From assembly GCA_964650355.1 (NCBI GenBank), contig CAZYTL010000001.1:216018-280017 (forward strand): 64,000 bases of DNA. The letters are read 5' to 3'. How positions within the stretch are numbered: position 1 is the first letter of the stretch; each line of letters starts with the position of its first letter. Both the position numbers and the translations under genes were made by a program. Shown here in pieces: positions 13,777 to 44,879 of the stretch. This DNA is from an uncultured Gammaproteobacteria bacterium (GTDB lineage: Bacteria; Patescibacteriota; Microgenomatia; CAYXHB01; CAZYTL01). Below the pieces are notes generated by a model. It ran no database searches. It had not been told where the DNA came from and was given only the letters and a program-made list of their open reading frames with translations.

Positions 13777-14391
13777 ATGACTTCTTCTTCCAAACAATCT
13801 CAAATTGCTGCTGTTAAAAAGCATGTCCTGGCGCTCACTTCTTCACCTTTATATGCTTACCGCACCAAACACCACTACCAGCCTGTAATCGGTGAAGGCA
13901 GTCTGGATGCCCGGTTAATGTTCATCGGTGAAGCCCCTGGACAAAAAGAAGCCGAAACCGGCAGGCCTTTTGTCGGTGCTGCCGGCAGAATCTTGGATCA
14001 GTTGTTAGCTGCTGTTCATCTCGATCGCAACCAAATCTACATTACTAATATAGTTAACGATCGCCCACCCGGAAATCGCGATCCTTTACCACAGGAAATC
14101 GATCTTTACTCGCCCTTTCTGATTCAGCAAATCAAAATCATTAAACCTCGGGTTTTAGCTACTTTGGGTAGATTTTCCATGGCCTTCCTCATGGACCGAT
14201 TCAGGCTCAAGTCAAAGCTCCAGCCCATCAGTAGGATTCATGGACAAGTATTTTCCACTCGTTCAAGTTATGGCCAGGTCTATTTGATGCCCCTGTATCA
14301 TCCGGCCGTGGCTTTATACCGGGCTCCCATGAAATCAGTCTTGTTGAAAGATTTCCAGTTGCTCAGCCATTTACTCAAGAAAAAGGATTAA
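13777..14391 (+). CDS. uracil-DNA glycosylase, family 4
   Basis: GEAPGQKEAETGRPFVGAAG family-4 motif. Confidence 0.85.
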   Translation: MTSSSKQSQIAAVKKHVLALTSSPLYAYRTKHHYQPVIGEGSLDARLMFIGEAPGQKEAETGRPFVGAAGRILDQLLAAVHLDRNQIYITNIVNDRPPGNRDPLPQEIDLYSPFLIQQIKIIKPRVLATLGRFSMAFLMDRFRLKSKLQPISRIHGQVFSTRSSYGQVYLMPLYHPAVALYRAPMKSVLLKDFQLLSHLLKKKD

Positions 14392-14430
14392 CCATCCGGA
14401 TGATAGTTAGCAACTAATAGATTTTATGCT

Positions 14431-14847
14431 ATGCTGGAAATAATGAATAGGAAAATAACTTGGGGATCAATCTTCTTCAGTGGAATGGCACTTCTGGTTA
14501 GCTTATTTTCTCCTGTTTACGCCGATGTACCTATCGGATCTTACTTCGGTCGTCGCACAATTGTCGGAGGAGCCATTGGCAGATATTCTGAGATTACCCA
14601 ACTGTTCAATCCGATCCTTGCCACTGCCTACGCCATTGCCGGATTAGTGGTCTTTTTTGTGGTCCTGGGCGGTGGTTTCATGTACATTATGGGAGCCGGC
14701 CAGAGCGACGCCAAAAGACTGGAGCAAGGTAAGCAAGCTCTTACTTGGGGATTAATCGGATTGATAGTCATTTTTATTTCCTATTGGCTGATCAGAATTA
14801 TTGAACTCCTTACCGGCATGGACATTTTTGGCGCTGGGGGATTATAA
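14431..14847 (+). CDS. small pilin-like membrane protein, TrbC/VirB2-like (T4SS-type pilin family frequent in CPR genomes), paralog 1
   Basis: 138 aa. Signal peptide, then two hydrophobic helices separated by a short polar loop, sharing a conserved core with the next three ORFs. Full evidence is in the first finding. Confidence 0.55.
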   Translation: MLEIMNRKITWGSIFFSGMALLVSLFSPVYADVPIGSYFGRRTIVGGAIGRYSEITQLFNPILATAYAIAGLVVFFVVLGGGFMYIMGAGQSDAKRLEQGKQALTWGLIGLIVIFISYWLIRIIELLTGMDIFGAGGL

Positions 14848-14878
14848 TGACAATTAACACCCTGACTTAAAGTCACCC

Positions 14879-15229
14879 ATGATGCTATTTCAACTACCAC
14901 CCATCTTCGGTCGAATTACCCCTCCTGCCGCAGTAGTTGCGATTGATGCTAGCGAAAGGGGTTTAACCACTTTTATCAGCAACCTGGTGAAGTTTTTTAT
15001 TGTAGTAGCAGGTTTATACGCCTTCTTAAACATCATTTTGGCCGGCTTCCAATTTTTGTCCGCCGGAGGCGATCCTAAAAACATGTCCCAAGCCTGGTCA
15101 AAAATCTACCAGACATTTATCGGTTTAATCATTGTGGCTGGAGCCGTGATGATCACTATGATTGTATCTTTAATCATTTTCGGAGATGCCGGCGCCATCC
15201 TGAATGTCGTTGTTTACGGTCCCAGCTAA
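14879..15229 (+). CDS. TrbC/VirB2-like pilin paralog 2
   Basis: 116 aa. Core ILAGFQFLSAGGDPKNMSQAWSKIYQTFIGLIIVAGAVMI is shared with its neighbours. Confidence 0.55.
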   Translation: MMLFQLPPIFGRITPPAAVVAIDASERGLTTFISNLVKFFIVVAGLYAFLNIILAGFQFLSAGGDPKNMSQAWSKIYQTFIGLIIVAGAVMITMIVSLIIFGDAGAILNVVVYGPS

Positions 15230-15306
15230 CTTAAACAACCATGACGGTCACCCAATTTAGTGATTACCTGTCTTTGCGGGTAGTCCGAGTGCTAAATACT
15301 TGATCT

Positions 15307-15783
15307 ATGTTTTCCGTTCTATTAGCTCAACATCGATGGGATCTGGGAGTGATCACCAGTATTGGTAATATCTTGAACCTTGATCCCGGCGCGCCAAGCC
15401 AATTAAGAACCGTTTTTAATCGCGGCATCTCCTTTCTCATTGCCTTCCTTACCGTTTTAGCCGGTCTATTTTTTCTATTTCAGATATTTATTGGTGCTTT
15501 GGGGTGGTTAAACGCCGGCGGTAATGAGAGCAACGTGGCCAGTGCTCGACAGCGTATCATGCAAGCCTTGATTGGCTTAGCCATAGTGGTAGCGGCTTAC
15601 GGCATCATCGCCTTAGTCGGTGCCCTTTTAGGCCTGAGCATTCTTAATCCGTTGGGTGAATTCACGAGCGGTACCGGCAGCCCTGCGCCTGCTTGTAGTA
15701 CTATTGGCTGCTCTGGGCCAGGAGACACAGTCTGCAGCGATAACGGCTGTGGTGCTTGTAATCCCACCTTTCATTGTAGCTAG
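15307..15783 (+). CDS. TrbC/VirB2-like pilin paralog 3 with Cys-rich C-terminal tail
   Basis: Core GALGWLNAGGNESNVASARQRIMQALIGLAIVVAAYGII, plus a 7-Cys tail CSTIGCSGPGDTVCSDNGCGACNPTFHCS. Confidence 0.55.
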   Translation: MFSVLLAQHRWDLGVITSIGNILNLDPGAPSQLRTVFNRGISFLIAFLTVLAGLFFLFQIFIGALGWLNAGGNESNVASARQRIMQALIGLAIVVAAYGIIALVGALLGLSILNPLGEFTSGTGSPAPACSTIGCSGPGDTVCSDNGCGACNPTFHCS

Positions 15784-15815
15784 GGCCAAAGACCTGTAAA
15801 TAAGAAAATCAAATT

Positions 15816-16238
15816 ATGTTTTTTCCAATAATTACCTTTATTTCCATCTTGTTCATACTCGCTGGGCGGGTTTATGCCCAAAATGAACAGATCTGCAATA
15901 CAGCCTTGCCAGCAATATTGGGGTGTGATCCCACCGGAGGGGAAAATATCATCGGCCGTCTACTGGCCAGAGTATTTTCCGCTGCCTTGGCAGCAGGGGC
16001 AATTGGCTTCCTGCTCTACTTGGTTTTCGGTGCTTTTCGCTGGCTGACTGCCGGTGATAATAAAGGCCAGGTAGAATCTGCCCGGAGCACTATTACCCAG
16101 GCTTTAATTGGAATAGTACTTCTGGCATCCATTTTTGCGATTGGCAGAATTGTAGGTACTTTACTGGGCTTACAGTGCAACGGACTTAGCTTCCCTGATG
16201 TGATCTGCTGGCCAGAAGTCCCGGCTCCTACTCCTTAG
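15816..16238 (+). CDS. TrbC/VirB2-like pilin paralog 4
   Basis: Signal peptide. Core GAFRWLTAGDNKGQVESARSTITQALIGIVLLASIFAIG. Four Cys in the extracellular segments. Confidence 0.55.
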   Translation: MFFPIITFISILFILAGRVYAQNEQICNTALPAILGCDPTGGENIIGRLLARVFSAALAAGAIGFLLYLVFGAFRWLTAGDNKGQVESARSTITQALIGIVLLASIFAIGRIVGTLLGLQCNGLSFPDVICWPEVPAPTP

Positions 16239-16289
16239 ACTTAGCGGTAGGGTTTTAATAATGCCTTGCCCTGATATACAATAATAGGC

Positions 16290-17807
16290 ATGGCGCCAGC
16301 TCTTTCCCAACCAGAAACCGCCCTGGAAGAAGACCTTAATCTGTTGTCCATCAAGCAACGCTCCGTTTCCGGCTTGATGGTGTTGATTTCTCGCTCCATA
16401 TTTTTGCAACTCATCGCCTTAGGTGGATTCTTTTTTCTCACCACTTTCCTAGACGTCTCCGAAATCGGCCTGTTCTTTGCCGTTGGCGAAATCGTGGCCA
16501 TTCTGGGCTATTTTTCTGATATCGGTCTGGCCGCCGCCCTGATTCAGAGACAAGAAAAACTCCACCTCATTGATTTGCGCACCACCTTTACTTTGCAACA
16601 AATCTTAGTCACCAGCCTTTGCCTCTTGGTCTTAATCTTCACCCCGCAAATCTCCGCCTACTTTAATCTGGCTGACCAGGGGGTGTGGTTGTTATGGGCG
16701 CTCACTGGTGGCTTTTTCCTGGCCTCTCTAAAAACCATTCCTTCAGTCCTTTTGGAACGCCATCTCAAGTTTGACAAACTGGTCATTGTTGAAAGCGTGG
16801 AAACCATTCTTTTTTACACCATTGCTGTGCTCATGGCCTGGCAGGGCAAGGGAGTGATCAGCTATGCTTTGGCGGTACTGGTCAGAGGCTTGGCCGGAGT
16901 AGTCACCATTTATCTGCTCTCACCCTGGAAAATCGGGTTCGCCTTTTCCCGCTCCACTCTCAAACAACTGTTTGGTTTTGGCGTACCTTACCAGGCCAAC
17001 ACTCTGATCGCCATGATCAAAGATCGGTTCCTTAATCTATTGCTCTTCAAGCTTATCGGTGCTCAGGGCATGGGCATTATCGGCTGGGCGCAAACCTGGT
17101 CGCAAAAACCTTTACGCTTTATCACCGATAATGTCACCAAAGTCACTTTCCCGGCTTTCTCTCGGCTGCAAACCGACCATGAATCCCTGTCTCGTTCAGT
17201 CGAAAAAATGTTATTTTTTTCAGCAGTGCTCATCTTCCCTGTGCTCATCGGCGCCGGAGTCATGGCCCAACCTCTGATCGATTTCATTCCCCGATATCAA
17301 AAATGGCAACCGGCGTTATTGGCTTTTTATCTTTATTTGTTTAATAGCGGCTGGGCAGCCATCTCCACTCCCATCACCAATACCTTAGCCGCCATCGGCC
17401 ACATCAAAGTGGTATCCAAGTTGATGATCATGTGGACCGTGCTCACCTGGACAATTATCGCGCCTTTAGCCTACTTCTTCGGCTATAACGGGGTGGCCGC
17501 CGGAGTGGCCATCGTGGCCGTAAGTTCTGTGGTTCCAATTTGGTTACTTTTGCGATACATCAAGTTCAATATCACGGACAACCTTCTCCGTCCCTTAGTT
17601 GCCAGCTTGATCATGGGTCTGGCTGTCTGGTTAGTTATCAACTTCTGGCCTCTTAATTTTGCCAATTCCTTTCTCACCGGTGGACTGAAAATCCTGTCCG
17701 GCATGATCACCGGAGTGGTTGTTTATTCCCTCAGCTCCTACCTGATCATCGGCCAACAATTGATACCCCAAATAAAGCTATTTTGGAGCTCTTTAAAACC
17801 CAAATAA
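16290..17807 (+). CDS. MOP-superfamily oligosaccharide/polysaccharide flippase (Wzx-like)
   Basis: 505 aa, about 14 TM helices. N-terminal pattern typical of Polysacc_synt / Wzx proteins. MurJ cannot be excluded. Confidence 0.6.
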   Translation: MAPALSQPETALEEDLNLLSIKQRSVSGLMVLISRSIFLQLIALGGFFFLTTFLDVSEIGLFFAVGEIVAILGYFSDIGLAAALIQRQEKLHLIDLRTTFTLQQILVTSLCLLVLIFTPQISAYFNLADQGVWLLWALTGGFFLASLKTIPSVLLERHLKFDKLVIVESVETILFYTIAVLMAWQGKGVISYALAVLVRGLAGVVTIYLLSPWKIGFAFSRSTLKQLFGFGVPYQANTLIAMIKDRFLNLLLFKLIGAQGMGIIGWAQTWSQKPLRFITDNVTKVTFPAFSRLQTDHESLSRSVEKMLFFSAVLIFPVLIGAGVMAQPLIDFIPRYQKWQPALLAFYLYLFNSGWAAISTPITNTLAAIGHIKVVSKLMIMWTVLTWTIIAPLAYFFGYNGVAAGVAIVAVSSVVPIWLLLRYIKFNITDNLLRPLVASLIMGLAVWLVINFWPLNFANSFLTGGLKILSGMITGVVVYSLSSYLIIGQQLIPQIKLFWSSLKPK

Positions 17808-20800
17808 TTGTTCATGAAAATTAAACTACTGGTGAAAATTTTTATCCTTCTGCTAACTGGAGTTTTCACTTGGCTGCTTACTTCTCCCGTTCTGGCCCAA
17901 ACCAAACCAGCCTGGGTAACGCCAGCCTTCCCGATTCGAGGCCAGGAATTCTGGACATTAGAGGACCAAACTCCTTACGACAACTTCATGAACTATCGGC
18001 GTTTAGTCGACGACAACCAACTAGCCGCCACTTGGCTGTTCAGATATGATGCTTTGTTTGATGATCAGATCTATACTTCAGCCAGATTATTTCCTTCGAA
18101 TCAACAACGCGGCTTGTTTTTAGAAATCACTCCTCAATTGGCAACAGACGCCCAGGTTCCTTATCGCACAGGAGGGGGATGGTCAGACAGCAATCGGGTG
18201 TATATCTCGGGATATTCTCTGGAGCAACGCAAACGATTAATTGACACTGCTGTGTCAAGGTTTCTGCGGATATTAGGGCACTATCCTCGGGTAGTCGCCG
18301 CTTGGCACATTGATGCCTGGTCTGCCAATTACTTATCCCGATCTTACGGAATAAACTCCATAATTATCTGTGCGGATCAATATGCAACCGATCAATATCA
18401 ACTCTGGGGTGGTTGGTGGGGAGTGCCTTATTATCCTTCGAAAAACAACATCTTGATTCCGGCACAGACTGTCGATTACAAACTTCCCTTAGTGGTATCC
18501 CAGTGGGCAGCCAGGGATCCTCTAAAAGGTTACGGTGGCGGCGTGCAAGCCAGCACTTACAGCGTCCAAGTTAACGACTATTTATTGCATAACTTAGGGG
18601 TTAATTACTTTGAACAATTGCTCAACATCTACACTCAGAATGCGAATAATCAGTTCGGCTACCTGCTTATCGGTATTGAAAATGACTACGATTGGGAACA
18701 ATACCAACAAGAGATCAGTGACCAGCTGGCAATCGTGGGTCAATATCAGACCGAAAACAAATTAAAAACTATTACCATGGATGAATTCAGTCATTGGTAT
18801 CAACAATCGTTTCCTAATCTCTCTCCGCCTCACAAAATCACTAATGAGGGCTACCATCTGGGACTCCCGATCGCAGGGCAAGTCACCAATTCGACTAGCC
18901 AAAACAACACTGTTACTTGGGAAATGACGCCCCAGTATCGACTTGGTTATTTAATTAACCAGCAACAAATAACTGTTTTCGACTACCGTATCTACGATCA
19001 GAGATTTTCCGAGCCTTACCTGGAAACCAAAAATCAGTTCGCCCGGCTCAATTTAGTGGACCCAGCCCAGATCGATACGGTTACTTTCCCCCAGCAAGCC
19101 AAGAGAGTTGACGCTGAACAACTTGATCAACTTCGCCATCCTGCCACCCCCAGATTACCTTTTCAGACATCTTGGAAATCTGTGGCTGTATGGTATGGGG
19201 TCCTGCTCATCGTTCTAATCATCTTGGCCAGAAAAAGCCTTTTCTTAACTCTGCTCCTTCTGGCGGGTACCGTCACCATTTCCCTGCCAATGGTCAAAAG
19301 CGGCTGGTTGTACCCCTTCGGTATGGGCTTCTGGGGACCCAACGGCCACGACGGTATTTGGCATCTGAGTTTAATCGAACACTTTTCCCGTTCCTGGGAT
19401 TTTAACTCCCCCATCATGTCCGGCACCAAACTAACCAACTATCATTTTTTATTCGATCTGCTCTTGGCCCTGATTAACCGCCTGACACCCTTTTGGTCGG
19501 CAACTACCTTATATTTTCAAATCATTCCTCCTTTGCTGGCTGTTTTGTTAGGCTGGCTGACTTACCAGTTTACTCTTACCTGGTCTCAGTCAAAATTATC
19601 CGCTTATTTGGCAGTCATCCTCATCTATTTTGGTTCGGGCTTCGGTTGGCTAGTCAGCCTACTCCGGGATCACAATTTAGGAGGAGAATCAGTATTTTGG
19701 TCTACCCAAGCTATTTCCACTCTGATCAATCCTCCTTTTGCTTTATCTTTGGTCTTACTGCTTACAGGATTGATTCTCTTCCAAAAATACCAGCATAAAA
19801 AGGTAGCGCAAGAACCAAAACTTTTTATTCTCACATCTGTTATCTTTGGTCTGCTGATTCATGCCAAGTCCTACGCCGGAATCTTAATCTTGGGCAGTCT
19901 GGCCATTTTGTCTCTCTTCGAAATAATTAAAATCATCCTTTCCAGGAAAGATATCAAAGGCCAGTTGTTAAAGCTCAATAGTCTTAAAATCCTTATTCTT
20001 TCCTCAGTTATTGCCCTCGTCACCTTTCTCCCCGTCCTTGATCTGTCAAAGACTTCGCTGATTTTTTCACCCTTTTGGTTTCCCCATACTATGCTGCTCT
20101 TCTCAGACCGATTTCATTGGCCTGAACTCTATAATGCCATCCCCACTTATTGGGCTACTCATAATTATCCCAAAGCCTTGGCAGCAGAACTTCTGGCCCT
20201 CGTCATTTTTCTGGCGGGCAATCTGGGCGTTCGCTTGATTGGCGGAATTTATGTAATCAAAGGGCTTCTCGCATCAATAAAGACCAAACAGTATTTCCCA
20301 GCAATTGACTGGCTATTAATCTATATAGTTGTAATCGCAACCATCATTCCTCTCTTGTTTATCCAGACAGGTACCCCGTGGAACACTATCCAGTTCTTCT
20401 ATTACGCATTGGTAATGATGAGCCTGTTTACTGCCAGAATTTTGGGGTCCTGGCTTAACCAATTACCTGCTAAAAAAGTCTTAACAACAGGGGCAAAAAT
20501 TGTGACATTTGGCACAATTTTTGCCCTCAGCTTCCCCACAACTGTCGGCACCTTGCAGCAATATCTGCCCTACCGCGCTCCTGCCAGAATCCCGTATGAA
20601 GAACTGGCTGCCCTGGAGTTTCTCAGCCACCAGCCGCAGGGAGTCGTGCTGACGTATCCTTTTGACGAGCAAAAAGTAGCCGATTATGGGCCTCCCAAAC
20701 CCTTGGCTTACTACGTGTCAACCGCTTATGTCTCAGCCATGAGCGGTCATCCGGTTTATTTAGAAGATGAAATCAACCTGGACATCATCACCTCAGGAAT

Positions 20801-30742: not shown

Positions 30743-33118
30743 TTAGTCGCCGATCAAAACCCTTTTCTTTAATTTTGCAGCCGCCATTCCCAGAGGGGAA
30801 ACAATCATCAGTAGGTAAACCAAATTCTTATCCGTGTCCTTCAAACCGAACTTCAAGGGTCCGACTGCTGCGCTTTCCACTTTGGGTTCCGGAGCCGGCG
30901 TGGTTTGCAAAAAGGGATCCTCTTCTCTTAACCATGTACCAGCCAACAATCTGGGGTCCGGACCTGTGTAATGTAAACTACTGGATTGTGAGTTTGCCAC
31001 CCAATCCTGGGCGTCCTCTTCAGTTAAGATCCCTGATTCATCATTGGTTGATTGAGTATTCTCAGTCTCTGAATTGGTGGTGGCTGGTTCCTCCTGATTG
31101 CCCTCGTCTGTGGGAGTAAAGTCCACTCCGCCGATGGCCAGTTCCTCGCCTTGATTATTATTCTGGTCCGGAGTTGAAGAAGCCTCTGCTGACTGCTTTT
31201 CGTGACCAGGTGTGACCACGTCGCCGATCCAACTCCCGAACACATTTACGAACGCAATTACCACTTTTCCTCCCACCACATTATTATTGACATAGTTAAT
31301 TACATTTTGATATACATTCACGTCTCCCGTACTAATATTACCTGAACCGGTATTAGCCTCCGCAGTATTGTGTCCGGTATCAGCGTTGATTACCACCTGG
31401 TTGTTCACGTCTGCTTGATTGTTTTGCTCAATGGTGGTAGTGGAATTTTGTTCACTACTCGCTTGATTATTTGAATCCGCTCCGGTAGTATCGTTAGCTG
31501 CCCCTAAGTCAAAAGTATCCACTACAGCCAGATGATCATCTTCACCAGCTCCCAGAATCTTTCCTACCCACTTTCCAGCTTCATTCACCACCACGATCCA
31601 CAATGTTTCTCCGTCACCTACAATATTATTGTTGGCCACCGTTACCTCATCAGCCTGCACATCAACCGATCCGGTTTCGACTGAGCCGCCTTCAGTATTT
31701 CTGTCCGCCTGATTACCTCCAGTATTGGAATTCACGACCACCTGATTATTAATATTGGCCTCATTATGCTGGCTTACCGTGTTGTATCTCTGTACCAGCG
31801 TGTCTGACTCGTTATTTGAACCCGCGCCTGTTTGATTATTGGTTGCTGTTTGACTGCCATCCCCGCAATCACTGCAGCCGGCCAAGGGACTCAAGATGAT
31901 ATCCCCTACCAGATCACCGAAAATGTTCACCGTGGCTACCAGCACATCAGCCGTGCTGTTTACCAAATTAACCGCGTTAGTAATCACATTCACATCTCCT
32001 GTCGTCACACTTCCGTCTCCGGTATTCTTGTCCGCACTATTATGGCCGGTGGTGGCGTCGACTACCAAATCATTCGCCACCGTGGCGTCATTGTTATTCA
32101 CAATCGTTAGAGCGGTGTTATTATCCGCTGCGACCTGATTGTTCGAATCAGCACCTGTTTGCTGGTTGGACGCTTGATTGCCATTACCGGTTGCGTCTCC
32201 TCCAATCACGATATCTCCTCGATGATCGTCGTACACATCATATTCACTGGTTTGCACGCCAGTGATGTCAGTATTGGCTACGTTCACGACCGTCAGGCCC
32301 ACATTAGCGTCCCCGGTGATTACCTCACCATTCCCAGTATTCTTGTCCGCACTGTTGTGTCCCGAATCTGCAATCGCAATCACTCCTGTATCCAAATTAG
32401 CATTTTGATTGTTCTCTATTATTGTATCGCTGTTAACTGTCGTATCTGCCTGGTTATTGGAGTCCGCTCCTGTTTGGTTGTTCTGTGCACTTCCCCCACT
32501 TGATCCACAGGTAGTACAGTTAGTTGTGGTGGTAACCGTGGTGTTGGCTTGATTCTTTACCACCCCTTGAACGGTAGCGTCACCACTGGTTACCGAGCCG
32601 TCCCCCGTGTTCTTATCAGCTGAACTGTGTCCTGAATCAGAAGTTAATACCAGGTCATTATTAACCTCAGCTTGATTGTCAGTCTTCACTTTGGTGTCCT
32701 GATTATCAGCTACCCCACTTTCATTATTAGAACCGGCTCCGGTCTTATTGTTTTCAGCAGTGGATTGACCGCTAGCGTCTGCAGGTGGTTGCTCATTTAG
32801 AGCTGCTGTCTCTTTTTTCGTGCTAACCTTTGATGTCGGAGTAGGGGATGGTTGGGGAGCTTGGGGAATATCAGATGCCTGAGGCACATCCGTCGGGCTA
32901 GGCGCAGAAGGTGGTTCTTGAGTTTCTGTTGTCGGAGGTTCCGGGGCCTGGGGCACTTCAGGAGGAGTCGGAGCATCCGGAGACTCTGGAGCGGTAGTTG
33001 CCGTAGGCGCGGTTGGTGGAGTCGGCATCTCGCTCGCCCAGATCCTGGCCATCGATCCTAAGGGGAAAAACCAAAACTGTATTATAATTAATAGTGAAAT
33101 ACTAACTTTGCGAATCAT
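30743..33118 (-). CDS. large secreted repeat surface protein (Pro-rich N-terminal linker, at least five ~65-aa NNQTGADSNN...DSGHNSADKNTGDGSVTTGD repeats, C-terminal hydrophobic anchor)
   Basis: 791 aa. N-terminal signal/TM. PTPPTAP...APQPSPTPTS proline-rich region. Repeats separated by CxxC pairs (CTTCG, CSDCG). C-terminal LVYLLMIVSPLGMAAA-KLKKR. Confidence 0.65.
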   Translation of the reverse strand: MIRKVSISLLIIIQFWFFPLGSMARIWASEMPTPPTAPTATTAPESPDAPTPPEVPQAPEPPTTETQEPPSAPSPTDVPQASDIPQAPQPSPTPTSKVSTKKETAALNEQPPADASGQSTAENNKTGAGSNNESGVADNQDTKVKTDNQAEVNNDLVLTSDSGHSSADKNTGDGSVTSGDATVQGVVKNQANTTVTTTTNCTTCGSSGGSAQNNQTGADSNNQADTTVNSDTIIENNQNANLDTGVIAIADSGHNSADKNTGNGEVITGDANVGLTVVNVANTDITGVQTSEYDVYDDHRGDIVIGGDATGNGNQASNQQTGADSNNQVAADNNTALTIVNNNDATVANDLVVDATTGHNSADKNTGDGSVTTGDVNVITNAVNLVNSTADVLVATVNIFGDLVGDIILSPLAGCSDCGDGSQTATNNQTGAGSNNESDTLVQRYNTVSQHNEANINNQVVVNSNTGGNQADRNTEGGSVETGSVDVQADEVTVANNNIVGDGETLWIVVVNEAGKWVGKILGAGEDDHLAVVDTFDLGAANDTTGADSNNQASSEQNSTTTIEQNNQADVNNQVVINADTGHNTAEANTGSGNISTGDVNVYQNVINYVNNNVVGGKVVIAFVNVFGSWIGDVVTPGHEKQSAEASSTPDQNNNQGEELAIGGVDFTPTDEGNQEEPATTNSETENTQSTNDESGILTEEDAQDWVANSQSSSLHYTGPDPRLLAGTWLREEDPFLQTTPAPEPKVESAAVGPLKFGLKDTDKNLVYLLMIVSPLGMAAAKLKKRVLIGD

Positions 33119-33220
33119 ACATAGTTAAACTTGTGAAACTTAAATAGTTAAATAGCTAAGTGGTTATAATTGATAAATTTAACCATTTAACAATTTAGCT
33201 ATTTATTTTTTGCAGTGGTG

Positions 33221-33255
33221 CTTCCGGATGTCAGAGGTCAATTGGCATCCGGAAG
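33221..33255. repeat. perfect 10-bp inverted repeat (cttccggatg / catccggaag) with 15-nt loop between two surface-protein genes
   Basis: Read directly from the sequence. A T-run (33201-33212) lies on the + strand side. Confidence 0.5.
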
Positions 33256-33280
33256 TCCAGACTCTGCAAATTGTCAAATC

Positions 33281-34567
33281 TTAGGCAGAAAATCCGAAAA
33301 ACAACATCCACCAAGAGCCGCTATCAGGAAGATTGCTGGCGTCCCACTCCACATCTGGCCAATCCCAACCGGTATTGCCCAGCACATTTTCGTTCTCTTG
33401 AGTGGTCACTTCTACTCCTGCTTCTACGTCACCGCTGTCGATTCCATCAGCAGTGTTTTCGTTGGTGGTGTTTTCACCGGTATTCAAAGCACCGAAAACT
33501 AGGTTAGCGACACCGCATTCCAAACCATGATGGTGATGCCCGCCCAGGATATCTGGTTGGGCTACTCCATCTTCTTCAGCACAATTTCCTTGGAAAATAG
33601 TATCTAGGGTAGTCAATTCGGCCGAAGTTTCGTTATTGGAATCCGCTCCGGTTTTGAAATTCCCGGCTGCCAACTCCACATCACAACAACCGTCATAGGC
33701 TAAGAAATTGGCATTCGCCATAGTGTCAAAACCTACACCTGTATAAATATCGCCGGTTTCAATCGCCCCCTCACCAGTGTTTTCATTGGCTTCGTTCCAA
33801 CCGGTATTGGCAAGAATTTCTGCATCATTCAAGATGTCTGCATAATTACTTTGCACAACCCAATCGGCTTTGCTGACATCAATGTGAGCTTGATTATTAG
33901 AATCAGCTCCAGTGGTGTCGTTACCTGCGGTTAGCGTCGGATCACCGGCGCCACCACCGTTGTGGCCAACACTGGCCATATTCTTGTTGGCTTTATTGTT
34001 TACTACGGAAACAGACTCAACGCCTCCGGTAGTAATTGAACCCATACCGGTGTTTTTGTTCGCCTCATTGTCACCAGTATTTAAGTCTTGGAAGATCTCA
34101 TTTTTGATATGAGCATTATTATCCTGCTCAAGTACCGTGGCCTTATCAACTTCGATTGATGTTTCATTATTAGAATCCGCACCAGTCTTTTCATTGGAAG
34201 CGTATAAGTCCAAGTCACACCCTCCACAAGGGTCAATGTCTGCGGCGTTTTTGTTCAAGGTCGTGGACAAACTTGTTCCGGTCTTGACATCGCCTGTGCT
34301 GATTGATCCCTCACCGGTATTTTTGTTGGCAGTATTACCTCCGGTATTGGCGTTAAGATCGATTTTGTTAACAACTGTACCTTGATTCTGTTGATCAACA
34401 AAAGTGCTCTGTTGCACGTCAATGTTGGCTTCGTTATTGGAATCAGCCCCGGTGGTATCGTTACCAGCAGTACCAGTGACAGTCGCGCCTGCCATACCTG
34501 CAAATGACCAGGTAAGTAAGGAGATGGTAGAGATTGCGGTACTGGCTTTATAAATAAATTTTTGCAT
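33281..34567 (-). CDS. secreted repeat surface protein, same repeat family, ends in LPDSG plus a short hydrophobic stretch
   Basis: 428 aa. Signal peptide. Repeats NANTGGNTANKNTGEGSISTGDV, NTGDNEANKNTGMGSITTGGV, NTGWNEANENTGEGAIETGDI. CxxC pairs. C-terminus NLPDSGSWWMLFFGFSA. Confidence 0.65.
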   Translation of the reverse strand: MQKFIYKASTAISTISLLTWSFAGMAGATVTGTAGNDTTGADSNNEANIDVQQSTFVDQQNQGTVVNKIDLNANTGGNTANKNTGEGSISTGDVKTGTSLSTTLNKNAADIDPCGGCDLDLYASNEKTGADSNNETSIEVDKATVLEQDNNAHIKNEIFQDLNTGDNEANKNTGMGSITTGGVESVSVVNNKANKNMASVGHNGGGAGDPTLTAGNDTTGADSNNQAHIDVSKADWVVQSNYADILNDAEILANTGWNEANENTGEGAIETGDIYTGVGFDTMANANFLAYDGCCDVELAAGNFKTGADSNNETSAELTTLDTIFQGNCAEEDGVAQPDILGGHHHHGLECGVANLVFGALNTGENTTNENTADGIDSGDVEAGVEVTTQENENVLGNTGWDWPDVEWDASNLPDSGSWWMLFFGFSA

Positions 34568-36435: not shown

Positions 36436-37044
36436 TTACTTCTTATTTATTAACTCCGCCGTCACCAGTAGCCTTTTCCATGTAGTTCCTGGTGGCCAAC
36501 AAGTTTGCATAGTCAATGTGGATTTGGCTATCTGCGGTTGTAATCGGCCTGTATCAGTACTGGAAACCACCTCTTTATTTATAATCTGATAGAAATATTC
36601 CTTTCCTTGATAAATTATCAACACCTGATCTCCGGTCTCCAGCTTATTAAGTAAATAGAATTCTGCATTGTAGCGACTGATGCGCCAGGGAGCATCTGTG
36701 GAATGGGCGAATAAAAATACGTTACCCGGTTCTCCAGGTAATGAGGTATTTGAGGCATGAGCCACTCCGCGTTCTAAAGCCGGCAAGTAAATCTCAGGTC
36801 TAAACGGATCTACGTTTTTGATCACCTCAGCATCGACCTTAATTTTAGGGATTATGACTCGAAACTGATCGGCAGATGCATCTGTAAGAGAAACGTCTAC
36901 CTGATTATTATCTTCCACCAACTGCCACCAGTAATATTCGATTTCTTTGATCAAAGCAGGCCCCCAAGGTAGGATCAACACCATCACTCCTGCCACAGTC
37001 AATCCGTTTCCAATCCACAAAAAGAGCTTCCTTTTCATCACCAT
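36436..37044 (-). CDS. sortase (transpeptidase)
   Basis: 202 aa. N-terminal TM. Catalytic His in FLFAHS, TLTMQTC active-site Cys motif (TLxTC), downstream conserved Arg (KRLLVTA). Confidence 0.8.
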   Translation of the reverse strand: MVMKRKLFLWIGNGLTVAGVMVLILPWGPALIKEIEYYWWQLVEDNNQVDVSLTDASADQFRVIIPKIKVDAEVIKNVDPFRPEIYLPALERGVAHASNTSLPGEPGNVFLFAHSTDAPWRISRYNAEFYLLNKLETGDQVLIIYQGKEYFYQIINKEVVSSTDTGRLQPQIAKSTLTMQTCWPPGTTWKRLLVTAELINKK

Positions 37045-37085: not shown

Positions 37086-38783
37086 TTAATCCAGGTTGTA
37101 AATCTCAAAGGCCGGCTGCCCGTCAGGAATCTTAATTGTTTCCTCATGATTAATGGTCCAGATCTTGTATTCCGGATTTTGTTCTAAATAACTGGTAGGA
37201 AATACTAACCAATCAATTGGCTGTTTATTTAGAAAAGCAGTTAAGTCATCTACTGATTTTGGCCAACCGAAAAACAGCCGTTCATCTGTTTGGTAAAAAG
37301 TGGAATTTCCAGTTTTAATTTCCATCGGTTCGCTTAAGTCTTCCGAATCAGTAATCTTAGATTGCCAAAATCTGAAATAACTACGAGGATAATATCCTGA
37401 CCAAATCACCAGCATTGATTGGTTGATCTTATCCTGTTGAAATTCAGCCAGCTCCTTAAACCCTGATTCAAAGCTTCTGGCAGCCAAAGTAGGGAACACA
37501 TGAAAATACCCGAAAAGAAAGTAATAGAAAGAATATGCACCAACGCCTAGAACAAATAACCAATATCCGAATTTGAAATACTGATTACGAATTACCTGCC
37601 CTGAACCTTGTCGTAATCCTGTTATCCGATTACTCAACTCGACAATTCCGATTGCCGTTAAGATGGTCAAAAACGGCATCATGGTAATCGCTCTTAATAA
37701 ATAGCCGGCCCCATCATTCGTCAACGCTGCCGGAATGGGTGAGGCTAAAATCCACACTCCAAATAGTTGTTTGGTCTGGTCATTGTTTCGTTGTTTCATA
37801 AATACGTAAGCTCCATAAACCATAAAAGGCAGTAAAAAAGGGTAAAATTCGCCTACCATATTGGTTGAATGCCTTAAAATCGGATCGCCTTTTAAGAATA
37901 ACCATTCTGGGGTGAAAAAGGACAAATAGTTTTCTGTAAATTGGGCCACTACCGCAACAGGGAAATTGTAAAAAAGGCGATTAATTAATTCCGGATCCCG
38001 ATTCAGGGAAAATATTGTTGGAGAAGAGTCTCTGGCAATTCCTCGATACAAATCAGTTTCTGCTGTCACGTTCACATCTCGCCAGATAGCCAAATCCAGA
38101 CCCCGTGCTTGAGGCGATAGCCCCTTATAGCGGGTCATTAAAATCATTAATCCGATTAGAGCTACTGCTCCTCCTCCGGCGATCAATTTCCATCTCTGTA
38201 CCTGATTCCTGACCTTGGCTTGTTGATAAAAAACCAATCCTAAGATAAAAGGTAGCATCACAATTATGGACGAGTAAACATAAGCCGCTGCCATTAAGGG
38301 CAAGAATGACCACCACAATTTTCCCCGTAAATACAAACCTGCATATAAACAAACCAACATTAATAAAATCGGGATATGGGTATGACCGATTCGACTAATC
38401 ATAAATGACCAGGGAAGCACTGCGGTTAATCCGGCTGCTATTAGGGAGATTCGCCAGCGACTTTGTTTATCACCTTTCATTCCATTAGCCAGAAAGAAGA
38501 CTCCCAGCGGCAGTAAACTGCCGTAAATTGCCGCTGGAAGACGTACTGCCAGTGTGGTCTTACCCAAAAACCAGGTAAATGTAAATATCCGGTTGTAGAC
38601 ACTGGTCAACAGGTTACCCACTGATAACGGATGACTGTTCAGCCATTGAAGTAGATAAACCTGACCGGCCTCATCTGCATAAAGAGGTGGAATATTTAAA
38701 TTAAGACGATAGAGTCTGATTGCTAGTGATAAAATAATCACTGCCCCCAGAATTAGCGTTGTTCGAGATCGTGTCAATTTCAT
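37086..38783 (-). CDS. ArnT/PMT-family GT-C membrane glycosyltransferase candidate
   Basis: 565 aa, polytopic. N-terminal RLYRLNLNIPPLYADEAGQVY loop (DE-containing first extracytoplasmic loop). Confidence 0.55.
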   Translation of the reverse strand: MKLTRSRTTLILGAVIILSLAIRLYRLNLNIPPLYADEAGQVYLLQWLNSHPLSVGNLLTSVYNRIFTFTWFLGKTTLAVRLPAAIYGSLLPLGVFFLANGMKGDKQSRWRISLIAAGLTAVLPWSFMISRIGHTHIPILLMLVCLYAGLYLRGKLWWSFLPLMAAAYVYSSIIVMLPFILGLVFYQQAKVRNQVQRWKLIAGGGAVALIGLMILMTRYKGLSPQARGLDLAIWRDVNVTAETDLYRGIARDSSPTIFSLNRDPELINRLFYNFPVAVVAQFTENYLSFFTPEWLFLKGDPILRHSTNMVGEFYPFLLPFMVYGAYVFMKQRNNDQTKQLFGVWILASPIPAALTNDGAGYLLRAITMMPFLTILTAIGIVELSNRITGLRQGSGQVIRNQYFKFGYWLFVLGVGAYSFYYFLFGYFHVFPTLAARSFESGFKELAEFQQDKINQSMLVIWSGYYPRSYFRFWQSKITDSEDLSEPMEIKTGNSTFYQTDERLFFGWPKSVDDLTAFLNKQPIDWLVFPTSYLEQNPEYKIWTINHEETIKIPDGQPAFEIYNLD

Positions 38784-38797
38784 ATCTGGATAAACGT

Positions 38798-40240
38798 CTA
38801 TTCAACAAATTGTCTTGTGCTGAGGGGAATTCTTTGCTTTCCTTCCGGTCTGGGTTGATCAGGAAAATCTTCATAATAAACTTGAATGGTTGGATTTTGA
38901 TAGATTACACGAAACATATCCGCATAAGAAATCGCTTGGGCTATCTGTTTAGAAGATCCCCAAGATTGGCCAAAATCGTCAGTATCATTTACAAATTCAA
39001 AATAAGATCCGGCCGGATATTGAGGATAATTTGTCTGCAAAAAATTAGCCACCTTTTGGCTGACTTTTGCCCGATTTACTGAGTAGTGATGTGTGTAAGT
39101 CAAATAATTCATCGACAAGTTTAATCCCAACCAGCTAACTACAAATATTCTACTCCACATCCCCGGACGGTTGTTTTTCCCCATCACTAACCAAGCCAAC
39201 CCTAAACTAAACCCTACCATCGGCAGAGTTAGTTCCAGAGTAAACTTATGCCAGGGCAACCAGAGCACCGGCAACAGACATACCACAAACCATCCTAATG
39301 CCAACCCGCCCATCTTCAATAATTGTCGCTTCTCCTTTGCCTTAGACAAATAATTTAAGCCCAGTCCTGCCAGTAACACTATTGTGGCTCCTACCGATCC
39401 TAGCATCCACCAGGACCACTTTCCAAAGTCGCTCCAAAACTTGGGGATAATCCGTAAACCACTGCCCACGTAATCCACTAAAAATTCAGGAGCGCCTAAT
39501 GCCCATAAACCATACCAAAACAAAGTGTTCAAGTTTTTCTTTAAAGAAAAACTTCCCACATAACTGTCTCCTTCTAAGGGCTTAAAGATCACCAATCTTA
39601 GATACCCATACCCGATTGCTACCAAAAAAAAGGGAAGATAACTTTGAAACCTAAATCGGTGTCTATACCAATCAATACCGACTAAGAGAACGGGCAGAAC
39701 TATGGCTGTTTCCTTGGATAATAGGGCTAAAATGAAAAAAAATATTGTTCGCAATAAATTTCCCTTCAGATGGCTTAAAACTGCTAATAAAATGAACATG
39801 GTCATCAGCAATTCCTGAAAAGTGGATAAAAAATAAAGCTTAGTAAAATTCGTCACCGAGAAACCATAGAAACATGTTACCCAGAAGGCAACATGTTTAT
39901 TAGTCAATAACTCAATAATCCAATAAACTAACAACAGGGTATATCCAAAAACAAACAAGGATATTAAATGACCGGGGATTGGGTTTAATCCAGATAGTTG
40001 ATAGCCCAGCCAAAAGAACACCTGGGTAGATAACGGTCGATAAAAACTAATCGATTGGGGAGTGGGGGAGAAAGAAAAGAAATTGAGAAACTCATTAACA
40101 TTGGAAATTTGCACCACCCGCAGGTGAAACCAATCATCAGCAGAAAAAAAATTTCCCAGCGAAGGCAAATACACGGCCATTGCCCCGGCTATAATCAATA
40201 ACAGCCTCCAACTAACAATTAGATTTTGTTTTTTCTCCAT
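38798..40240 (-). CDS. polytopic membrane protein, GT-C-like
   Basis: 480 aa, 11 or more TM. N-terminal FSADDWFHL loop. Short soluble C-terminal domain. Confidence 0.45.
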   Translation of the reverse strand: MEKKQNLIVSWRLLLIIAGAMAVYLPSLGNFFSADDWFHLRVVQISNVNEFLNFFSFSPTPQSISFYRPLSTQVFFWLGYQLSGLNPIPGHLISLFVFGYTLLLVYWIIELLTNKHVAFWVTCFYGFSVTNFTKLYFLSTFQELLMTMFILLAVLSHLKGNLLRTIFFFILALLSKETAIVLPVLLVGIDWYRHRFRFQSYLPFFLVAIGYGYLRLVIFKPLEGDSYVGSFSLKKNLNTLFWYGLWALGAPEFLVDYVGSGLRIIPKFWSDFGKWSWWMLGSVGATIVLLAGLGLNYLSKAKEKRQLLKMGGLALGWFVVCLLPVLWLPWHKFTLELTLPMVGFSLGLAWLVMGKNNRPGMWSRIFVVSWLGLNLSMNYLTYTHHYSVNRAKVSQKVANFLQTNYPQYPAGSYFEFVNDTDDFGQSWGSSKQIAQAISYADMFRVIYQNPTIQVYYEDFPDQPRPEGKQRIPLSTRQFVE

Positions 40241-40293
40241 CTCTCTTATTCTACCCTATTACTCATTTCTAGTTATCGGTTACCGATTACTCT

Positions 40294-41370
40294 CTACCGA
40301 CTTCGTTTCCTTATTTTCTGCAAAAAACTCTTTATTGATTTTAATTCGGGACTATAGATTGTAAGCATATAACGCACCGCCCCTATAAAGACAAAAATAT
40401 AGCCCCAGGCAGCGATTTTCTCTGCCGTCTCAATTTGACGAATCATGAACAGTATCGGGTAGGAAATAATAAAACATAATGAGAATAAGAATATCTCAGA
40501 GTGGTTAACCTTGTACAAATAAATGGCGACAGCACTGAGTAAGGTGATCAGTAAAGTTAAGCTATCACTGGATTCTTTAATGAAAAAAACATCTAGTATC
40601 ATCAACCCCAATATTATTGAAGGAAGCCAAGCAGTTATCAGCAATTTTTTGACATACAAATTCTTATTTGGTATGGGGAGTGAATAACGCCTCGATATTA
40701 AGATAAAAATTAAAAAGTAAACGATTAGAGGAATGAATAATGTCCAGAGATAGATCAGAAACCCATGATCAACCAACAAGTTGATTAGTTTGTTAAAACT
40801 AAATTTAAGTAAGAACAGCAAAGAAGAAGAAAGCGCCTCCTTATCCACTAGATATCTAGTGGTAATTTGCGGTGGATATCTGCTAATAGCCACGGCATCC
40901 GCTGGTCCGCCATTTTGGGATTCAATCTCGATTTCATAACTTTTCCCCTTGGCATCTTTTACCACTGGAAACACAAAAGGAAAAAGTTGATCAGACTTGA
41001 AATTAGACGCCTGATAACTATTTTCGTAAAACCATCCGGGTTGATCTTTTTCCTTGATTCTAAACGCCACAGTATCATTGCTCTGACGATCGAAAGTATA
41101 AAATCGCACGAATATCGCGTCCAAATTGTTGTCAACAGCAGTGATCTCTCGATAAAATTTCATTCCGGCATATATTTTCTTGTTCGTAGCGATTAAATCA
41201 ACAGTGGATTGTAGTGAGGTATAATTGAGCCAACCCACCTGGTCGCCTACATAATTAAAAATGCCCACGGCAATAAAACTTACATAAATCAGGGGCAGAA
41301 TCACCCAAAGGATGAGATTAACTGATTTGTTTTTATAAATGAGGGCTAACAATCTGGGTAACTTAATCAT
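40294..41370 (-). CDS. membrane protein, partner of the YfhO-like gene at 41389 (module copy B)
   Basis: 358 aa. N-terminal TM, ~180-aa extracytoplasmic domain (FVRFYTFDRQSNDTVAFRIKEKDQPGWFYENSY), C-terminal 4-5 TM bundle. Paralog of the gene at 43854..44879. Confidence 0.45.
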   Translation of the reverse strand: MIKLPRLLALIYKNKSVNLILWVILPLIYVSFIAVGIFNYVGDQVGWLNYTSLQSTVDLIATNKKIYAGMKFYREITAVDNNLDAIFVRFYTFDRQSNDTVAFRIKEKDQPGWFYENSYQASNFKSDQLFPFVFPVVKDAKGKSYEIEIESQNGGPADAVAISRYPPQITTRYLVDKEALSSSLLFLLKFSFNKLINLLVDHGFLIYLWTLFIPLIVYFLIFILISRRYSLPIPNKNLYVKKLLITAWLPSIILGLMILDVFFIKESSDSLTLLITLLSAVAIYLYKVNHSEIFLFSLCFIISYPILFMIRQIETAEKIAAWGYIFVFIGAVRYMLTIYSPELKSIKSFLQKIRKRSR

Positions 41371-41388
41371 AATTAATCATCGCTGATA

Positions 41389-43839: not shown

Positions 43840-43853
43840 ACCGGTTTATCAAT

Positions 43854-44879
43854 TTAATGATTAACTCGTAGTGCTCGCCAGCTAACTAAAATTTTTATTA
43901 ACCCGATTACCAGCAACAAGTAACTCCAGACGAAAAAATCGTTAGCTACATAGTCAAGGTTCAAAACAAAAAACAACAGATAAAGCAGCATAGCGCAGCC
44001 GCTAACCGCTAATATAAAGTTAGTTTTAACCTTATAAAAAATAATGCTTAATACGACTAAAATTAATAGAGCTGTTAATCTCAGACTATTCTGACTTTTG
44101 ATAACTAATATATCAAGACTGGTAAGCAGCACGGAAATCACTCCTAATAGGGGGTTACGACTTACCAGATTACCTAAACTAATAGATGAAGAAACCACCG
44201 TATTGAAAAAATTATTGTGGCGAAGCTTGACAAAAATTAAAAAGCCCAGATAACAAGCAATTATCAGCACCCTGATGATTATCAGTTTTAATAACCGCGG
44301 AGTTGAAAGAATTTCTGTAACCTTTAGATATAGAAATTTTATCAATTCGGATTTATTTGTTAACAGCTGGCTTAACTGAATTTTATATCTGGCTGAGTAT
44401 TGGGGTCTGACGCTACTAATGGCGATAGCATTACCATCTTGACCTTGAGTAGATTCGATTTGAAAAACATAATTATTTCCCCGCGATGATGTGATTAAGG
44501 GAAAACCGAAAGGAAATAATTCATCTGGTAAAAACTGATCAACTTTATATTTGTTTTCGTAATACCACTGGCTAGCACCTACTTGCTTAATCCTAAAAAT
44601 TAACCAATCATCACTGATCCGGTTAAAGTTATAAAAACGGATTGTGACCAACCCCAAATTATTAAAACCGGCAGTGAATTCATCCGTCACGATATCATTG
44701 GCATGTAATTCTGTTGATGGCTTAACGTTAGAGAAATTATGAAATTCTGCCGCAATTAAAATCCCGCCTTCCGTTTTGAGCTCCTCATATAAATCTGAGC
44801 CCAGATATAAAATTAGGCCAATGGGGATGAGGATCCAAATAACCAAGTTGGTAATTAAAACTGATAGTTTTTTCGTCAT
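43854..44879 (-). CDS. membrane protein, partner paralog (module copy A)
   Basis: 341 aa. TIRFYNFNRISDDWLIFRIKQVGASQWYYENKY aligns with the paralog at 40294..41370. Overlaps the upstream gene by 4 bp. Confidence 0.45.
   Translation of the reverse strand: MTKKLSVLITNLVIWILIPIGLILYLGSDLYEELKTEGGILIAAEFHNFSNVKPSTELHANDIVTDEFTAGFNNLGLVTIRFYNFNRISDDWLIFRIKQVGASQWYYENKYKVDQFLPDELFPFGFPLITSSRGNNYVFQIESTQGQDGNAIAISSVRPQYSARYKIQLSQLLTNKSELIKFLYLKVTEILSTPRLLKLIIIRVLIIACYLGFLIFVKLRHNNFFNTVVSSSISLGNLVSRNPLLGVISVLLTSLDILVIKSQNSLRLTALLILVVLSIIFYKVKTNFILAVSGCAMLLYLLFFVLNLDYVANDFFVWSYLLLVIGLIKILVSWRALRVNH

Follow-up and report, generated by a model that had tools for sequence, protein, structure and literature searches.

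A tandem array of four PF18895 pilin-like genes lying apart from type IV secretion genes in a Microgenomatia-like genome

The question raised by this locus is what four small, similar genes are doing side by side with no secretion machinery near them. The genes occupy positions 14431–16238 on the + strand of a 64,000-nucleotide stretch of contig CAZYTL010000001.1 (hereafter the window, numbered from its first letter), where four consecutive open reading frames (ORFs) encode proteins of 138, 116, 158 and 140 aa that we call P1 to P4. An original prediction, made from the letters of the window, described them as tandem paralogues of TrbC/VirB2-type pilins, each with a leader or signal, a common core motif and two hydrophobic helices, and as members of a type IV secretion system (T4SS) pilin family typical of the Candidate Phyla Radiation (CPR) or Patescibacteria. 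We find it very probable that P1–P4 belong to the PF18895 family of T4SS pilins. The overall model that we favor, as a probable account that is well short of certain, is that the four genes encode divergent VirB2-like pilin subunits of a filament extruded by a T4SS.

Four tandem genes of one pilin family

It is clear that the four genes are related to one another. P2, P3 and P4 align with P1 at 23–27% identity over one common core, and a profile built from P1–P4 matches just those four when run against the 543 ORFs found in all six frames (E 0.37 for the next best), which bears out the prediction of four tandem same-strand paralogues as well as the sizes given for them. P1 runs from 14431 to 14847, with a probable true start at M5 (14443) that would shorten it from 138 to 134 aa, the length of its database copy (P0004). 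P2 occupies 14879–15229 within a stop-to-stop frame that opens at 14858, P3 occupies 15307–15783 and P4 occupies 15816–16238, leaving intergenic gaps of 31, 77, and 32 nt inside the array. The genes are not an assembly artefact, since positions 14277–18179 of the window are identical (0 mismatches in 3903 nt) to an independent contig assembled from SRA run SRR14802573 and three of the four pilin proteins are also recorded from an NCBI contig of 295,193 nt. The G+C content of the array is 0.457, the same as that of its flanks, and so gives no hint of recent import. Scans of the whole 64-kb window for tRNA genes and Rfam families found nothing, and thus no integration-site or mobile-element signature is seen beside the array.

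Membership in the pilin family is indicated first by Pfam. Against PF18895 (T4SS_pilin), for which the curated gathering score is 26.6 bits, P2, P1, and P4 score 38.1, 29.7, and 29.5 bits, respectively; P3 scores 22.0 bits (E 1.8e-4), which is below the gathering score, yet it falls within the local family profile. The top NCBIfam match of all four proteins is NF045849, a pilin-like conjugal transfer protein, with scores of 23.7, 18.0, 13.6, and 19.8 bits against a cut-off of 40 (E 2.9e-5 to 0.039). Taken with the array homologues in Microgenomatia described below, the PF18895 matches of all four agree with the predicted T4SS-pilin family typical of CPR/Patescibacteria. The family is very large: in a full-depth search with its profile, 98,992 cluster representatives pass E<=1e-3, and 37,213 still do so when the limit is E<=1e-10. 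The best-scoring representatives (P0047–P0196) are single polypeptides of 2–17 head-to-tail pilin hairpin units free of X residues, such as P0060 (1775 aa, 17 units), P0063 (1147 aa, 11 units), and P0047 (552 aa, 6 units), and these may be natural array fusions or gene-calling read-through. As a separate observation, the NF045849 match hints that monoderm elements of the MPF-FATA type may already carry VirB2-like proteins, which bears on a possible co-option of Patescibacteria pilins from diderm systems, a question left open by PMC12102498.

The relation to TrbC/VirB2 proper (PF04956) appears, at the level of sequence, to be only transitive and not direct. The family member P0042 forms the bridge, exceeding the gathering score for PF18895 (34.3 bits) as well as that for PF04956 (32.1 bits). 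The gene that closes a homologous array in Gottesmanbacteria (locus L005, see below) nearly clears both, with 45.4 bits for PF18895 and 25.6 bits for PF04956. Type IV pilins of the PilA type, which are also in use among Patescibacteria, were considered for P1–P4 and rejected. The proteins have no G/FxxxE motif (the slash here and below marks cleavage) and no Pfam match to type IV pilus families; both of their hydrophobic helices are internal, and a globular domain is missing.

The architecture of the proteins is that of a membrane hairpin. Hydropathy reveals two long hydrophobic segments in each of P1–P4 (the segments found in P1 are 9–31, 57–91, and 102–130). The AlphaFold2 model of P2, run with a 41-sequence family alignment, is a hairpin of helices 24–61 and 66–101 with a mean predicted local distance difference test score (pLDDT) of 80.9 and a core near 95, while that of P4 has a signal helix at 3–20, a low-confidence linker, and a hairpin of helices 45–78 and 83–116 (pLDDT 76.2). 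The two predicted hydrophobic helices are thus supported by hydropathy in all four proteins and by modelled hairpins in P2 and P4. The loops between the helices are short, reading GAGQSDAK in P1, AGGDPK in P2, AGGNES in P3, and AGDNKG in P4, with a few K/R residues after the loop; the core motif quoted in the original prediction is a good fit to P2 and P3 and only a loose one to P1 (GAGQSD) and P4 (AGDNKG). The C-terminal tails are acidic, and for P3 the loop is basic. A topology with the loop inside and both termini outside would be weakly consistent with the acidic tails and with the K/R residues that follow the loop.

Classical Sec signal peptides are present in P1 and P4 only. For P1, sequence reading and hydropathy predict the signal MNRKITWGSIFFSGMALLVSLFSPVYA followed by D (14443–14523, ending in SPVYA/D), after which comes the hairpin; for P4 the signal covers residues 1–21 (15816–15878, ending in RVYA/Q). 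P2 and P3 cannot carry a signal peptide because in-frame stop codons lie just upstream, 7 codons ahead of the ATG in P2 and 1 codon ahead in P3 (a TGA at 15301–15303), so the statement that each member has a leader or signal is right for P1 and P4 and does not apply to P2 and P3. The possibility of a P3 signal hidden by stop-codon recoding was rejected, as read-through of the TGA gives a non-hydrophobic peptide.

P3 starts with the short leader MFSVLLAQ (15307–15330), a form that recurs in the family. By a crude hydropathy threshold set for this analysis, 30 of the 46 listed family members are without a hydrophobic signal peptide, so a Sec signal peptide is evidently not universal in the family. 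Many of the signal-less members start with a leader of 4–8 residues, M-x(0-6)-[LI][LIT]-A-[QED], for example MFSVLLAQ, MLLAQ, or MKSQLIAQ, as found in P3, P0007, P0015–P0017, P0019–P0026, and array genes of the homologous loci L002, L004, and L005. Signal-bearing members have [LVF]-A-Q at the predicted cleavage site, the place where canonical VirB2 has an invariant A-x-A-Q. We found no description of the short-leader 'LAQ' members in the literature on these arrays. That 'LAQ' might serve as a cleavage site between the units of fused pilins was considered and rejected, given that the junctions in P0047, P0062, and P0083 are without the motif and P0052 has loose internal matches only.

The expected Cys-rich segments of P3 and P4 are both present. 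P3 ends in a 29-aa tail with 6 Cys (15694–15780, + strand), placed after helix 2 by alignment to the modelled paralogues and predicted to be extracytoplasmic. P4 has a Cys pair, C27/C37, before helix 1 (15894–15926, + strand) and a C121..C131 loop after helix 2 (16176–16208, + strand), so that its two pairs flank the hairpin on the would-be outer side. The C-terminal loop of P4, C...PDVICWP, is retained in several P4-type orthologues (P0007, P0009, P0011).

Conserved subtypes and a candidate filament

Homologous arrays of 4 to ~10 tandem genes (loci L002–L007) occur on metagenome contigs from JGI and Logan as well as in GCA_001003565.1, a Ca. Gottesmanbacteria genome. Orthologues of P1 are 87% (P0005), 58% (P0012), and 47% (P0013) identical to it, P2 has an orthologue of 40.6% identity in the Gottesmanbacteria locus L005 (9649–9999), P3 has orthologues of 45–55% identity in L002, L004, and L005, and those of P4 are 54–70% identical. 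The fact that orthologues (40–87%) are far closer than the four paralogues of the window are to each other (23–27%) means that the duplication is old and that the subtypes have been individually maintained. By best match, the subtype order 1-2-3-4 of the window is also that of three other Microgenomatia arrays, namely L002 (9188–12943), L004 (9200–10813), and genes 5–8 of L005 (9322–10731). The core four are followed by additional copies that resemble P3 and P4.

A link to secretion machinery is seen in the related locus L007, where PrgI (the VirB3 homologue, 36.5 bits) lies ~6 kb downstream of the array and is adjoined by a VirB4-like protein, the homologues of which are annotated as VirB4 and carry PF19044, PF01935, and PF12846. 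In this related lineage, then, there is a physical link between the pilin family and T4SS machinery. Other genes near the arrays may be mentioned here. A protein with the peptidoglycan-remodelling SpoIID domain, possibly an analogue of VirB1, lies beside or near the arrays of three related lineages, L002 (1–1623), L004 (1609–3381), and L005/L006 (5507–7261); no SpoIID match is seen in the window. L002 and L004 also have two long pilin-domain proteins (282–407 aa) and a divergent sigma factor of the extracytoplasmic function (ECF) type nearby.

In the model that we favor, each protein would form an alpha-helical hairpin in the cytoplasmic membrane. The hairpin is taken from the structure models, and the orientation is proposed: the short, mildly basic [AG]GG[DN]..K/R loop would lie on the cytoplasmic side and the two termini on the outside. 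Export via Sec and cleavage after VYA would bring P1 and P4 to this state, and P2 and P3, having no signal peptide, would insert through their first helix. A VirB4-powered platform (VirB4, TrsD, PrgI/VirB3, and a VirB6-like protein), presumed from the literature to be encoded elsewhere in the genome, would then extract pilins from the membrane pool, and the extracted pilins would polymerise into a surface filament by analogy with VirB2 and TraA; this step of the model draws on the homologous array that is linked to PrgI and VirB4, and on Southlakia epibionticum, in which the pilin series is essential. The filament would expose the variable N- and C-tails, among them the Cys-rich tails of P3 and P4, in which disulfide bonds are presumed. 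The four subtypes would most likely have non-redundant roles in one filament, for example as major and minor or tip subunits, in view of their age, the conservation of each one, and their fixed order.

This last step can be set against the idea that P1–P4 are alternative major pilins that can replace one another, in which case the array would provide for a variable filament surface, used in evasion or in switching host range. Surface variation of this kind is a published hypothesis for Patescibacteria (PMC12102498); Bartonella and Anaplasma, with their several copies of virB2, are other cases for which it has been put forward. It is in keeping with the very low identity of the paralogues, with the predicted exposed N- and C-tails being their most variable parts, and with an array size that differs among genomes. 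However, the orthologues of each subtype are far closer than the paralogues, and the same order is kept in three other arrays, a pattern that rapid diversification would explain less well than fixed, specialised roles. The consistent lack of signal peptides in two subtypes also suggests different handling. We thus regard interchangeable pilins as unlikely.

It is also important to consider the results that weigh against a T4SS filament at all. The Pfam scan covered every non-overlapping ORF of the window of 60 aa or more, for the most part with a limit of E<=0.001, and was extended to E<=0.1 for the ORFs that had no match. None of the scanned ORFs belongs to a T4SS family (VirB4, VirB6, VirD4, or PrgI), although divergent Patescibacteria analogues of VirB6 or VirB8 can escape Pfam; the ~9 kb that follow the 3' edge of the window on a Logan contig are also without a T4SS family. 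Among the 120 matches listed, of 6004, to the Gottesmanbacteria VirB4, none sits on the 295,193-nt NCBI contig, a result that says little either way. P1–P4 have no PF04956 match at E<=10, a search in which real VirB2/TrbC proteins score 63.8–78 bits. Aligned by hhalign, the family alignment (A2) and eight annotated plasmid VirB2/TrbC proteins give a probability of 3.2% (E 0.014), although the two sets align in register, with each helix placed on its counterpart. The TrbC/VirB2-type label of the original prediction accordingly survives through the bridge member P0042 and not through a direct match. Nor is there a sequence match to any solved pilin: the profile finds only chance transmembrane-helix matches among PDB chains, and searches by fold bring up nothing more specific than hairpins and coiled coils of a generic kind. 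The proposed topology has just a weak positive-inside signal, as the loops carry a charge of 0 to +1, and P2 and P3 are without the signal peptide that the literature describes for such arrays. As far as the literature consulted shows, no pilus made of PF18895 proteins has been seen in any Patescibacterium.

The absence of nearby machinery seems less surprising in light of what has been published. Quinonero-Coronel et al. (2025) applied PF18895 and PF04956 to 3,035 genomes and found VirB2-like pilins in 1,948 VirB4-containing assemblies, with the pilins near virB4 in only 1,135 of them (PMC12102498), so an array without nearby machinery is common and no anomaly; pilin genes lie away from virB4 in ~42% of the VirB4-containing Patescibacteria assemblies with pilins. 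The same study reports 441 arrays of 2–11 pilin genes in 383 assemblies, with a mean identity of 25% and with the greatest abundance in Microgenomatia and Saccharimonadia, describes the T4SS genes of Microgenomatia as notably dispersed, and finds Patescibacteria VirB4 to be phylogenetically related to the MPF-FATA class of T4SS (PMC12102498). In Saccharibacteria and other CPR, McLean et al. (2020) had earlier described 4–6 small proteins with signal peptides, arrayed by VirB4, VirB6, and VirB2 (PMC7427843). A pilin series inside the T4SS cluster is essential in S. epibionticum (PMC10633639). The Patescibacteria T4SS is required for epibiotic growth in the single species tested, and its function has been called 'completely unknown' (PMC11665869). 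A 2025 review speaks of 'VirB2-like pilins' with 'potential to elaborate conjugative pili' and sees the pilin arrays as setting Patescibacteria T4SS apart from other monoderm T4SSs (PMC12857230). The present locus is a further example of this catalogued type of tandem array and adds no new principle.

These findings and the published record also bear on a reading in which P1–P4 are small two-pass membrane proteins with a role other than in a pilus, such as membrane organisation, a channel or holin-like activity, or an accessory part of envelope machinery, so that the 'pilin' in the name of PF18895 would be annotation only. The lack of T4SS genes nearby, of a significant profile match to real VirB2, and of any experimental pilus in the literature consulted would all suit such a role, as would the automatic JGI names of the homologues, which are unrelated membrane-protein labels. 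Against it stand the transitive Pfam bridge to TrbC/VirB2, the pilin-like conjugal transfer protein as top NCBIfam match of all four (though below its cut-off), the homologous arrays beside PrgI and VirB4, the pilin genes near virB4 in 1135 assemblies (PMC12102498), and the essential arrayed pilin genes in the T4SS cluster of S. epibionticum (PMC10633639). On this evidence a non-pilus role seems improbable, and T4SS pilin subunits are the better description.

A more ambitious form of the pilin reading may be put forward as a rather doubtful extension. The array might be the minimal core module (subtypes 1-2-3-4) of a heteromeric Microgenomatia filament, combining a Sec-exported pair with a short-leader pair (M-x(0-6)-LLAQ) that would follow an undescribed route of insertion and processing, and working at a distance from, or independently of, VirB4 machinery. 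If this were true, it would amount to a logic of pilus-subunit assembly unlike that of every characterised conjugative pilus. The array is in any case a clean and compact example, with four genes, one per conserved subtype, lying apart from the machinery and mixing Sec-dependent with signal-less members, and is therefore a convenient minimal set for questions of co-assembly, of which subunit is the major one, and of membrane targeting by short leaders.

The surrounding genes

The array sits where the original prediction placed it, between a uracil-DNA glycosylase gene (PF03167, 108.5 bits), which ends 39 nt before P1, and a gene for a Wzx-type flippase (PF13440, 162.5 bits), which begins 51 nt after P4. 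Further upstream are mutL, several small enzymes, and mutS on the opposite strand, and after the flippase the same strand carries a 1064-aa membrane protein, a PIG-V-like protein, and YfhO. The window has no further pilin copies and no T4SS ATPases. Walker A motifs occur only in MutS and in an APS-kinase-like protein, and together with the Pfam scans this upholds the claim that VirB4, VirB6, and VirD4 are missing from the window.

The position of the array appears to be particular to its lineage. The MutS of the window is 54% identical to that of a Ca. Levyibacteriota metagenome-assembled genome (MAG) of the Microgenomates group and 55% identical to that of a second relative with a doubtful label, L018 (CAZRDR010000029.1), and neither close relative has pilin genes beside mutS, which makes the array position lineage-specific. 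Together with the Gottesmanbacteria homologues of the pilins, the MutS comparison gives indirect support to a patescibacterial source, probably a lineage of Microgenomatia close to Levyibacteria. A conserved mutS-array synteny was accordingly rejected, since in L018 and L019 mutS is followed by mutL or by an acyltransferase-like gene and there are no pilins. L018 is labelled 'uncultured Gammaproteobacteria' and shares mutS, mutL, and downstream gene content with the Ca. Levyibacteriota MAG; its bin label is probably wrong.

Compact Patescibacteria genomes routinely put unrelated genes on one strand with short gaps. A functional tie of the array to the downstream glycan and envelope block (the Wzx flippase, the 1064-aa membrane protein, the PIG-V-like protein, and YfhO-type GT-C enzymes), with the pilins as glycosylation substrates or export components, is suggested by the shared strand and short gaps on both sides, by the Polysacc_synt_3, Mannosyl_trans2, and YfhO assignments of the downstream genes, and by a Ser/Thr/Pro-rich P3 tail that could carry O-glycans on a reading of its sequence, but it is very unlikely given how routine such placement is, given that no array stands at this place in the nearest relatives by mutS, and given that no non-pilin neighbour is common to the window and the arrays in L002, L004, L005, and L007.

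Farther downstream the window encodes FtsA, an FtsQ-like gene, two large repeat-rich secreted proteins, and a sortase, followed by large polytopic membrane proteins without a Pfam match, GT2 glycosyltransferases, methyltransferases, epimerases, a sulfotransferase, and the APS-kinase-like enzyme. The two secreted proteins (791 and 428 aa, 30743–34567, − strand) are built of repeats of the form N-x-A-D-x-N-T-G-x-G-S-(V/I)-x-T-G-D and have no Pfam match, and the sortase (PF04203, 74.6 bits; 36436–37044, − strand) lies ~2 kb from them, so these proteins may be sortase-anchored surface fibres or adhesins. Embedded in the cluster of GT2, methyltransferase, and epimerase genes is a region (37086–47287, − strand) with 7 kb that hold two paralogous pairs, each composed of a ~800-aa polytopic protein and a ~350-aa membrane protein, with two more large membrane proteins alongside; none of these has a Pfam match even at E<=0.1, and they look like uncharacterised GT-C-like glycosyltransferases. 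Across this glycan-biosynthesis block (34000–64000) the G+C content is 0.36–0.42, and 0.31–0.35 at 58–64 kb, as against ~0.45–0.48 at 10–34 kb, which is compatible with a horizontally exchanged surface-polysaccharide cluster.

Comparison with known systems

The canonical TrbC/VirB2 pilins (VirB2 of A. tumefaciens, TrbC of RP4) and the F-type pilin TraA are likewise small propilins with two hydrophobic helices and a short loop. The leader motif A-x-A/Q, invariant in the eight aligned VirB2/TrbC proteins, has its counterpart here as VYA/Q or LAQ. The eight plasmid virB2 genes all lie between virB1 and virB3, whereas the neighbours here are uracil-DNA glycosylase and a Wzx flippase, and canonical TrbC/VirB2 is a single-copy protein of diderms, whereas the window has multiple divergent copies in a monoderm host, for which cyclisation or acetylation is without support.

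A second point of comparison is the NF045849 protein (Mbov_0395 / ICE_MMCAP2_0565) of Mycoplasma integrative and conjugative elements (ICEs), a two-helix protein of ~80 aa that belongs to MPF-FATA-type elements of monoderms (Tenericutes). That protein is encoded by a single gene inside an ICE, whereas P1–P4 form a chromosomal multi-gene array and all of their NF045849 scores are well under the cut-off.

A further close likeness is to the arrays of S. epibionticum ML1 (SEML1_0006–0019) and Nanosynbacter lyticus TM7x. In both of these the array lies inside a T4SS cluster, whereas here there is no virB4, prgI, or virB6 within at least 64 kb, and the TM7x array has N-terminal Sec signals, whereas two of the four members here are without one. 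What they have in common is the same PF18895 family, proteins of ~100–160 aa, and the two-helix hairpin, and the window also has in common with Patescibacteria arrays its tandem same-strand paralogues of ~25% identity and a patescibacterial (Microgenomatia-like) host.

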